DNA of 64,000 bases, taken from assembly GCF_900178005.1 (NCBI RefSeq), contig NZ_FXBS01000006.1:1395585-1459584 (forward strand), read 5' to 3'. Source of the DNA: Tuberibacillus sp. Marseille-P3662. GTDB lineage: Bacteria > Bacillota > Bacilli > Bacillales > Sporolactobacillaceae. Shown here piece by piece: positions 32,867 through 33,184 of this stretch; position 1 is the stretch's first letter; every line of letters begins with the position of its first letter. Under the pieces are notes generated by a model that was given only the letters and a program-made list of their open reading frames with translations, searched no databases and was not told where the DNA came from. A program made the position numbers and the translations under genes.

Positions 32867-33184
32867 CTAATAGCGCCTACATCCTGAACTTCCACGTCTT
32901 CTTCTTCGACCGGTACTTTTATGACCCGGTGACCTGTGCCCACTTTTTCTGCGGCCAGGGCTTCTGCGACCCGGACTTTTCCGACCTGGGCTTCCTGGGC
33001 CTCGTCTTCCTGGACCTGTCCGTCGAGGTCGGCTTCTGCGAACCGGGCTGGCCTTTTTCCGACTTGTTTTCCTACCCCCTGTACATCTTCGCCTTGATGA
33101 GCGTTTGGATTCAACTGGATCATTATACAGATAAGAATGATCTTCAACCATTAACAGAATCTCATTCATATCATCTTTGAACAT
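32867..33184 (-). CDS. CotG-like basic tandem-repeat spore coat protein candidate
   Basis: The 105-aa product starts MFKDDMNEILLMVEDHSYLYNDPVESKRSSRRR and continues with SPGRR/SPGHK-type Arg/Ser/Pro/Gly repeats. A GGAGGGA RBS lies 7 nt upstream. Repetitive DNA leaves two other frames open (32707-33147 and 32929-33180). Confidence 0.5.
   Translation of the reverse strand: MFKDDMNEILLMVEDHSYLYNDPVESKRSSRRRCTGGRKTSRKKASPVRRSRPRRTGPGRRGPGSPGRKSPGRRSPGRRKSGHRSPGHKSTGRRRRRGSSGCRRY

Follow-up and report, generated by a model that had tools for sequence, protein, structure and literature searches.

The window studied here is the whole 64,000-nucleotide (nt) stretch of Tuberibacillus sp. Marseille-P3662 DNA that was analysed, and it holds a spore-coat gene cluster in which a small cotG-like gene on the minus strand (32867-33184) lies next to a cotB-like gene on the plus strand. 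The genome appears to carry two divergent copies of one module, the N-terminal domain of CotG and ExsB proteins: a shortened copy opens the 105-amino-acid (aa) cotG-like protein, and a full-length copy is placed inside the tail of the cotB-like protein. We are highly confident of these claims of identity and architecture, that is, of the module and of the CotB-CotG fusion. The explanation that we prefer as a whole, in which a CotG/ExsB module became fused into CotB and serves as a docking or adaptor element for the coat kinase CotH, is in our judgement reasonably probable. The CotH docking mechanism taken by itself is put forward more tentatively, as a possibility that falls short of an expectation. 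The features of the two genes are as follows.

32867..33184, minus strand: cotG-like gene, 105 aa, ATG start (open reading frame (ORF) translation)
33116..33169, minus strand: shortened N-module, residues 6-23 (MNEILLMVEDHSYLYNDP) (motif match; hidden Markov model (HMM) on last 7 columns; helix core; alignment with locus L048)
32870..33106, minus strand: basic, presumably disordered repeat region, residues 27-105 (composition, tandem repeat)
32947-32994, minus strand: tandem repeat, 15-bp unit x 3.2, encoding the pentapeptide repeats of the cotG-like protein
33192..33198, minus strand: ribosome-binding site (RBS) GGAGGGA, 7 nt before the ATG at 33184
33254..33279, minus strand: sigma-K-like promoter match AC-N16-CATATTAT for the cotG-like gene (consensus match only)
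32826..32859, no strand: 15-bp perfect hairpin between the convergent small acid-soluble spore protein (SASP) and cotG-like genes (folding against shuffles)
33559..34266, plus strand: cotB-like gene, 235 aa (ORF translation, homologues, AlphaFold2)
34069..34134, plus strand: internal CotG/ExsB-type module, residues 171-192 (KVYDAMKKADKSGTRKYMYNDP) (orthologue island, HMMs, hhalign, AlphaFold2 helix)
34240..34263, plus strand: conserved C-terminal motif RGGWIKLS, predicted beta strand (alignment; AlphaFold2)
33489..33516, plus strand: sigma-K-like promoter match AC-N18-CATATACT for the cotB-like gene (consensus match only)

The sequence-only reading, made before any database search, had noticed that the cotG-like protein and the tail of the cotB-like protein share a motif, Y-x-Y-N-D-P-x-E-S. 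The motif is indeed common to both: with the six-frame pattern [YFW][LMFIV][YFHW][NQ][DEN]P only two matches were found in 64 kb, one in each protein, and pairwise BLASTP aligned them at YLYNDP/YMYNDP (E 0.024 in a single comparison over 6 residues). The nine-residue string is not the conserved unit, since the residues after the Pro vary. The true unit has 26 residues, most of them upstream, [DE]IQxAVExAxxxG[LM]xx[FY][LM]x[QN][DE]P, and the Y[LM]YNDP-type motif is its last six. It is laid out as a short amphipathic helix ([DE]IQxAVExA), a Gly and then [FY][LM]x[QN][DE]P, with DDIQNAVERANSFGLSDFMYQDP as the consensus peptide, and the region after it is always Ser/Thr- and Arg/Lys/His-rich and disordered.

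The suggestion that the motif recalls the N-terminus of CotG was borne out. The NCBIfam model NF047410.1 (CotG_ExsB_Nterm, 26 positions) gave 36-44 bits on ordinary CotG-like proteins at the fetched loci, with the match ending exactly at ...QEP/QDP, and the motif can be read as the C-terminal end of this curated "CotG/ExsB N-terminal domain". The N-terminus of B. subtilis CotG as given in the sequence-only reading, ...DYLYQEP..., agrees with the name of NF047410 and with the CotG-like N-terminus of Bacillus sp. 165 (L008), MGYYQKDIHKAYNHVVDSGMGAYLYQEP. A 44-column module profile searched against the protein collection returned only 12 proteins of 27-62 aa, mostly partial, with names including "CotG/ExsB N-terminal domain-containing protein" and "exosporium protein ExsB". 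It means that the domain name is confirmed and the range of architectures is not. Because all 12 matches are so short, and the named ones are mostly labelled "partial", gene callers seem often to miss or truncate proteins of CotG/ExsB type.

Loci of cotH were taken from species genomes, as the best 80 of 273 by CotH similarity (a set without the B. subtilis group), and the module survey set comprised 85 cotH-containing sequences. An alignment with CotG/CotB orthologues had been proposed as a check on the motif, and it came out in favour: 48 distinct N-modules aligned without gaps, and the 26-column profile matched 83 of the 85 sequences at 10 bits or more. Among 25,794 frames (1.63 million six-frame residues) there were 88 such matches, all in contexts of CotG-like proteins or CotB-like tails and none among the other ~25,700 frames. 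The module usually opens a basic repeat protein whose gene is divergent from cotH, an arrangement seen for 38 of the 40 stand-alone module genes in which both genes were located. In the sixteen loci that escaped the first pattern, the motif takes forms such as FLTQEP, FMFKDP and FLHEYP. Ala9, Gly17 and Pro26 are the most conserved positions, and the module has no conserved Ser or Thr. Two loci contain two tandem stand-alone CotG-like genes upstream of cotH, with N-modules YLKQEP and YLYQEP in L008 (8334-9815, minus strand) and FLKQEP and FLRQEP in L021 (~8500-9810, minus strand). CotG-like proteins were described as non-homologous in primary sequence (PMC9765600, PMC7725329); contrary to this, their N-module appears to be homologous in primary sequence across the 84 loci examined.

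The fused copy was recognized in the closest CotB-like homologues, where the otherwise variable tails contain an island [VI]xxA[VM]xxAxxxG[TSN]xx[YF][MF]xN[DN]P. Carriers are Scopulibacillus (2 species), Pseudalkalibacillus (5 genomes), Terrilactibacillus tamarindi, Fictibacillus gelatini, Bacillus sp. Marseille-Q3570, Alkalihalobacillus sp. YIM B00296, a Bacillales metagenome-assembled genome (MAG) and three metagenome or read-assembly contigs. In one Pseudalkalibacillus locus (L011) the ORF with the module is 156 aa long and lacks the CotB N-domains; it may be a truncated cotB-like gene. In this fusion clade no stand-alone cotG-like gene was found beside cotH, a result that covers +/-10 kb around cotH. 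That a shared module had moved between coat proteins, as first suspected, is supported by profile comparison: the island and N-module profiles align with an hhalign probability of 97.5% (E 7e-12), columns 3-26 to 3-26 in register. Both sets had been chosen by the six-residue pattern, and the comparison was rerun on the 20 upstream columns only. Without the six motif columns the score was 13.95 (P 2e-4), again in register and above all 100 column shuffles (maximum 10.0). Among 1002 window frames, the cotB-like tail ranks first (14.8 bits, E 0.0011) for an HMM built only from the stand-alone modules of other genomes, and with an HMM made from the islands of other species the window island scored 38.8 bits.

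An exhaustive profile search yielded 605 representatives of the CotB family at E<=1e-3. The internal module is present in 12 of the 168 representatives examined, and all 12 are among the 17 closest to the query; therefore, the fusion is clade-specific. Among the sequences examined, a fused and a stand-alone copy occur together in this window only. The NF047410 domain, the CotG-like proteins and the cotB/cotH/cotG cluster are already known. In the literature searched, which did not extend to Saggese 2016 and McPherson 2010, we found no description of a module fused into the CotB tail, of coexisting fused and stand-alone copies or of a subtype with a shortened module.

The upstream flanks of the closest CotB-like contigs were also inspected. 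L083 has only 74 bp there. The gene divergent from cotB-like in L084 was considered as a CotG-like candidate and rejected: it begins MSQLQEILAFNEKFLEDKAYEP and is not CotG-like, and we take it to resemble a carbonic anhydrase. In Pseudalkalibacillus decolorationis the 1-kb stretch upstream of cotB-like contains only an array of repeated elements (L001, 6923-7606) with overlapping similar ORFs (...KGNDSSLFVP...).

The two genes of the window are adjacent and divergent, and both copies have NDP and then x-E-S after the Pro, unlike most other species, so that a recent intragenomic copy, by gene conversion or partial duplication of the tail, might be thought to explain their similarity. However, 7 of the 27 bases in the nine motif codons are different, among them three synonymous third positions, and thus the similarity lies at the protein level, with no recent copy of DNA. 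The repeat DNA has a guanine-plus-cytosine (GC) content of 55-62% against ~38% in the cotB-like tail, and the cotG-like N-terminus is nearer to that of L048, an uncultured Bacillales MAG (YLFNDPVENKKS, E 2e-6), than to the neighbour's tail (E 0.024). A recent copy is largely refuted by these data and we give it almost no weight.

The cotG-like protein is the basic repeat protein that the sequence-only reading had described at 32867-33184. It contains 26 Arg, 15 Ser, 14 Gly, 8 Lys and 3 His against 7 Asp plus Glu, giving a computed isoelectric point (pI) of ~12.0, and its Arg/Ser/Pro/Gly pentapeptides read SPGRK, SPGRR, SPGRR, SPGHK and STGRR; the product of the basic frame includes MFKDDMNEILLMVEDHSYLYNDPVESK. 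By analogy with B. subtilis CotG and B. anthracis ExsB (PMC7821199), the repeat region is presumed to be a CotH substrate. Its N-module has the helix core NEILLMVED, lacks ~6 residues (the AxxxG[LM] part) and continues with YLYNDP. The core agrees with the helix-core matrix DDIQNAVEE at p 0.008, and the HMM of stand-alone modules recognizes SYLYNDP only, which is its last 7 columns (5.5 bits, E 0.8). The closest relative is the small ORF divergent from cotH in L048 (BLASTP E 2e-6), whose N-terminus, ...EEIRKVANELNDASYLFNDPVENKKSK..., aligns without gaps with the cotG-like module and is itself below NF047410 detection. An Aneurinibacillus protein in L081 is apparently of the same subtype as these two.

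GC-rich repeat DNA is poor in stops, and it could be argued that the 105-aa ORF is no gene at all, its frame being merely held open by such DNA or left by a decayed remnant, and its motif arising by chance. Three to four frames are in fact open over the same DNA, as first reported: besides the basic frame, 32707-33147 (minus strand, 146 aa), 32929-33180 (plus strand, 83 aa) and 32936-33097 (plus strand, 53 aa), which is due to a GC content of 55-62% in the repeat DNA against ~30-40% in the flanks. The ORF is also missing from the protein collection and metagenome relatives were not found. A homologue search in a collection of 5.8 billion protein clusters gave 57 candidates, none at E<=0.01, and scans against Pfam and NCBIfam gave no match. 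On the other side, only the basic frame combines an ATG and a well-spaced RBS with a promoter-like site and a terminator right after the stop, in accordance with its earlier choice as the plausible coding frame. The 146-aa frame has an internal TTG start, crosses the terminator hairpin and runs antisense to the SASP gene. In addition, the family motif and helix core stand at the N-terminus, the composition agrees with more than 55 CotG-like proteins at cotH loci, and the L048 homologue stands in the canonical position. We regard a non-gene as most improbable, and the ORF appears best regarded as an unannotated gene in a public genome.

The 81-nt stretch with the hairpin folds with a minimum free energy of -28.5 kcal/mol (z -4.8), and 0 of 200 shuffles were equally stable, so it is probably a bidirectional terminator. 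A scan with sigma-70 and terminator consensus told nothing about these mother-cell genes and overlooked the hairpin, whose T-run is weak. The cotG-like gene is presumably expressed in the mother cell, and its signals for expression are the RBS, the sigma-K-like site and this hairpin.

The cotB-like protein consists of two Sm/Hfq-like beta domains, a short Ser/His-rich linker, the internal CotG/ExsB-type module, a Ser/Lys/His-rich region and the C-terminus RGGWIKLS. It had been thought to end at ...SSRRS; in fact residues 186-210 are KYMYNDPSESSHSSHSKGKKSSRRS, and 25 further residues follow, up to RGGWIKLS. From residue 7 to 235 the cotB-like protein is 100% identical to P0001 (229 aa), a hypothetical protein of Tuberibacillus sp. 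Marseille-P3662 that starts at Met7. An exact-sequence look-up of the 235-aa and 229-aa forms found neither on record. The 235-aa start is better supported, and the deposited start codon is probably wrong, since AAGGAGG (33545-33551) precedes the ATG at 33559 by 7 nt and the homologues open with MxxxDSIxK.

Twenty-six homologues were found, some named "spore coat protein B" or "spore coat protein", and the protein matched DUF6897 at 24.8 bits (cutoff 23.9). The GGPES N-domains (33592-33972) have Sm/Hfq-like, KOW and Tudor-type small beta barrels as their top PDB matches (2x4j at E 1.4e-4; an archaeal Hfq at a target TM-score of ~0.8), with a sub-threshold NCBIfam match to the MM0924 family. 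AlphaFold2 predicted the two beta domains with a predicted local distance difference test score (pLDDT) of ~90, a disordered tail with a helix at 170-181 over the island, and a strand at 231-234, the last residues having a mean pLDDT of 73. The tail (residues 139-235) has 22 Ser and a pI of 11.1, and by analogy with CotB it may be phosphorylated by CotH.

The C-terminal motif G[WYF][IF][KR]L was considered as a piece of the fused CotG and rejected, as it is kept in CotB-like proteins without the module (P0007, L048). These two (the latter at 4036-5103, minus strand) have acidic, Asp/Glu/Ser/Asn-rich tails and retain a C-terminal G/W-x-[YF/I]-[FI]-[RK]-L. It means that the charge of the tail can flip within the CotB-like family while the terminus stays the same. 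The RGGWIKLS-type C-terminus thus appears to belong to the CotB-like lineage, with one exception in Camelliibacillus cellulosilyticus (L015). Here a stand-alone 337-aa CotG-like gene divergent from cotH (8600-9613, minus strand) encodes a module (AYRLAKETGTEKYMYNDPWEP) and a C-terminus, GCYFRLT, that resemble the fused CotB-like tails; an ORF with CotB N-domains was not found within +/-10 kb. This protein could be either a fission product or an ancestor of the fusion.

Compared with known systems, both copies resemble NF047410 in having a helix, a Gly, [FY][LM]x[QN][DE]P and then a basic Ser/Thr-rich region, but one is internal (cotB-like 171-192), the other is short by ~6 residues, and both are under the cutoff. 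The cotG-like protein shares with B. subtilis CotG and the modular CotG-like proteins (Saggese et al. 2016, as cited in PMC9765600 and PMC7821199) a small size, a very basic composition, short tandem repeats, a place in a cotH/cotB cluster and an N-module before the repeats. It differs from them in its length of only 105 aa, in SPGRR-type pentapeptides instead of the 6-7-residue repeats of CotG, in a shortened N-module and in a gene divergent from cotB-like instead of cotH. ExsB of B. anthracis and B. cereus has the same N-terminal module (for example MKYNIQKAVEEIKAAGMEGFLHQDP in L082), and its repeat region carries multiple phosphorylations, for which a CotH homologue is most likely responsible (PMC7821199). 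Its repeats, however, are rich in Thr, Cys, Lys and His, and the protein anchors an exosporium. The cotB-like protein is like B. subtilis CotB in its N-terminal GGPES beta domains, Ser-rich basic tail and gene beside ywrJ and cotH, whereas it has two N-domains and not three, a much shorter tail and the embedded CotG/ExsB-type module. Its C-terminus RGGWIKLS also differs from the ...TIDYHWKG of the three-domain CotB proteins of L068 and L072.

In B. subtilis, CotH polyphosphorylates the CotB tail with the help of CotG and also phosphorylates the CotG repeats, and CotG binds the C-terminal half of CotB in the yeast two-hybrid system (PMC7821199). The same paper states that the way in which CotG stimulates CotB phosphorylation is unknown. 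We suggest that the module would be a short docking or adaptor element, by which the Ser-rich stretch next to it is delivered to the CotH kinase, or CotH is activated toward that stretch. Its action would be in trans in canonical species, where CotG would assist CotH in phosphorylating CotB, and in cis in the fusion clade. Such a role suggests itself because the module is always beside cotH, stands before a Ser/Thr-rich basic region and is fused into the CotB tail in one clade. On our own Rosetta-stone reasoning, two proteins that are fused in some genomes would act together. Stated more generally, and only as a tentative proposal, the module may be a portable motif for CotH recruitment, by docking or activation, which would license an adjacent Ser/Thr-rich disordered region for multisite phosphorylation wherever it is placed.

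The main rival is that the module serves coat assembly as a protein-protein element without a direct kinase role, by CotG-CotB binding, by self-association or by anchorage in outer-coat material that depends on CotE. It is in line with the working model of PMC9765600, in which the N and C termini of CotG touch CotB, and a predicted short helix in a disordered tail is typical of any binding motif. But the near-absolute pairing of the module gene with cotH is easier to understand with a CotH-centred function, and in the fusion the module is already covalently within CotB, so that bridging of CotG and CotB alone would be redundant. We consider this assembly role unlikely, though it deserves serious attention.

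The sequence-only reading had offered a CotH-substrate motif as one meaning of the shared sequence, and the module adjoins heavily phosphorylated regions in known homologues (PMC7821199). It might accordingly be a modification site, serving CotH as phospho-acceptor or for priming, or being cleaved or cross-linked by enzymes such as YabG or Tgl. The aromatic positions argue against this: position 1 of the motif is Phe in most species, and position 3 may be Y, F, H, N, W, K, T, C, S, V or R, which makes a phospho-acceptor role of the motif Tyr unlikely. The lack of a conserved Ser or Thr, with Ala9, Gly17 and Pro26 as the best kept positions, points the same way, and we hold a modification site to be very improbable.

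Several observations weigh against the docking or adaptor reading, or against the module assignments under it. In B. subtilis both termini of CotG are implicated and not the N-terminus alone. AlphaFold2 confidence is low over the island (pLDDT ~50-60). With NF047410 (cutoff 28 bits), the 105-aa ORF, its first 40 residues, the cotB-like protein and its tail gave nothing at E<=10, and other fused tails reached only 12.3-14.3 bits, or 17.9 bits in L047. The cotG-like N-terminus alone is not significant against the module HMM (E 0.5-0.8), and its assignment draws on the motif, the helix core, the context and one homologue, which together suggest a module. No close sister genome was found, and two metagenome scans for relatives of the 105-aa ORF, with the protein alone and with the alignment of the window and L048 proteins, gave pattern matches of which none was confirmed by tblastn.

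The remaining genes of the cluster are as follows.

32615-32815, plus strand: alpha/beta-type SASP gene, convergent with the 105-aa cotG-like ORF
34645..36057, plus strand: ArsB/YwrK-like transporter gene (Pfam ArsB E 2e-65; equal position in L001 and L002)
36077..36757, plus strand: YwrJ-like (CotB-N-domain-like) gene (weak DUF2642 match; the L001 and L002 counterparts carry PF27152 YwrJ_3rd)
36798..37871, minus strand: cotH, atypical Ser/Thr coat kinase (Pfam PF08757 CotH)

The product of cotH matches PF08757 at E 2.9e-87, residues 47-349 covering profile positions 1-322 of 322, and is full-length and intact. The region is the cotG-like / cotB-like / ywrK-like / ywrJ-like / cotH spore-coat cluster of a Tuberibacillus, and the order cotB-like, arsB-like, ywrJ-like, cotH is also found in Pseudalkalibacillus decolorationis and in one metagenome contig. 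The cotG-like gene lies within the cluster, 3.6 kb from cotH, and is divergent from cotB-like and not from cotH. In our own reading, the order in the window is the canonical one, as in L048, with the block from cotB to cotH inverted.

A second alpha/beta-type SASP gene is present at 38367-38585 (plus strand), and together with the first one it brackets the whole cot cluster. The two paralogues form diverged direct repeats ~5.76 kb apart, whose proteins are 73% identical and whose DNA, with the RBS region counted in, is 74-85% identical, and they may be the mark of a duplication or insertion of the cluster. Just 3' of the second gene, at 38642-38712, a 29-nt unit (ATTGCGC...TAATTGCGCT) occurs three times with a spacing of 21 nt.

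CotH, CotG and CotB make up a phosphorylation module that patterns the outer spore coat of Bacillus, and the present finding is of moderate interest, chiefly for spore-coat specialists. It offers natural constructs with the module in trans, in cis and in shortened form, by which the open mechanism becomes directly testable. If the module were such a portable motif, it would explain why CotB phosphorylation needs CotG, and the CotG-like proteins would be one family, defined by the module.

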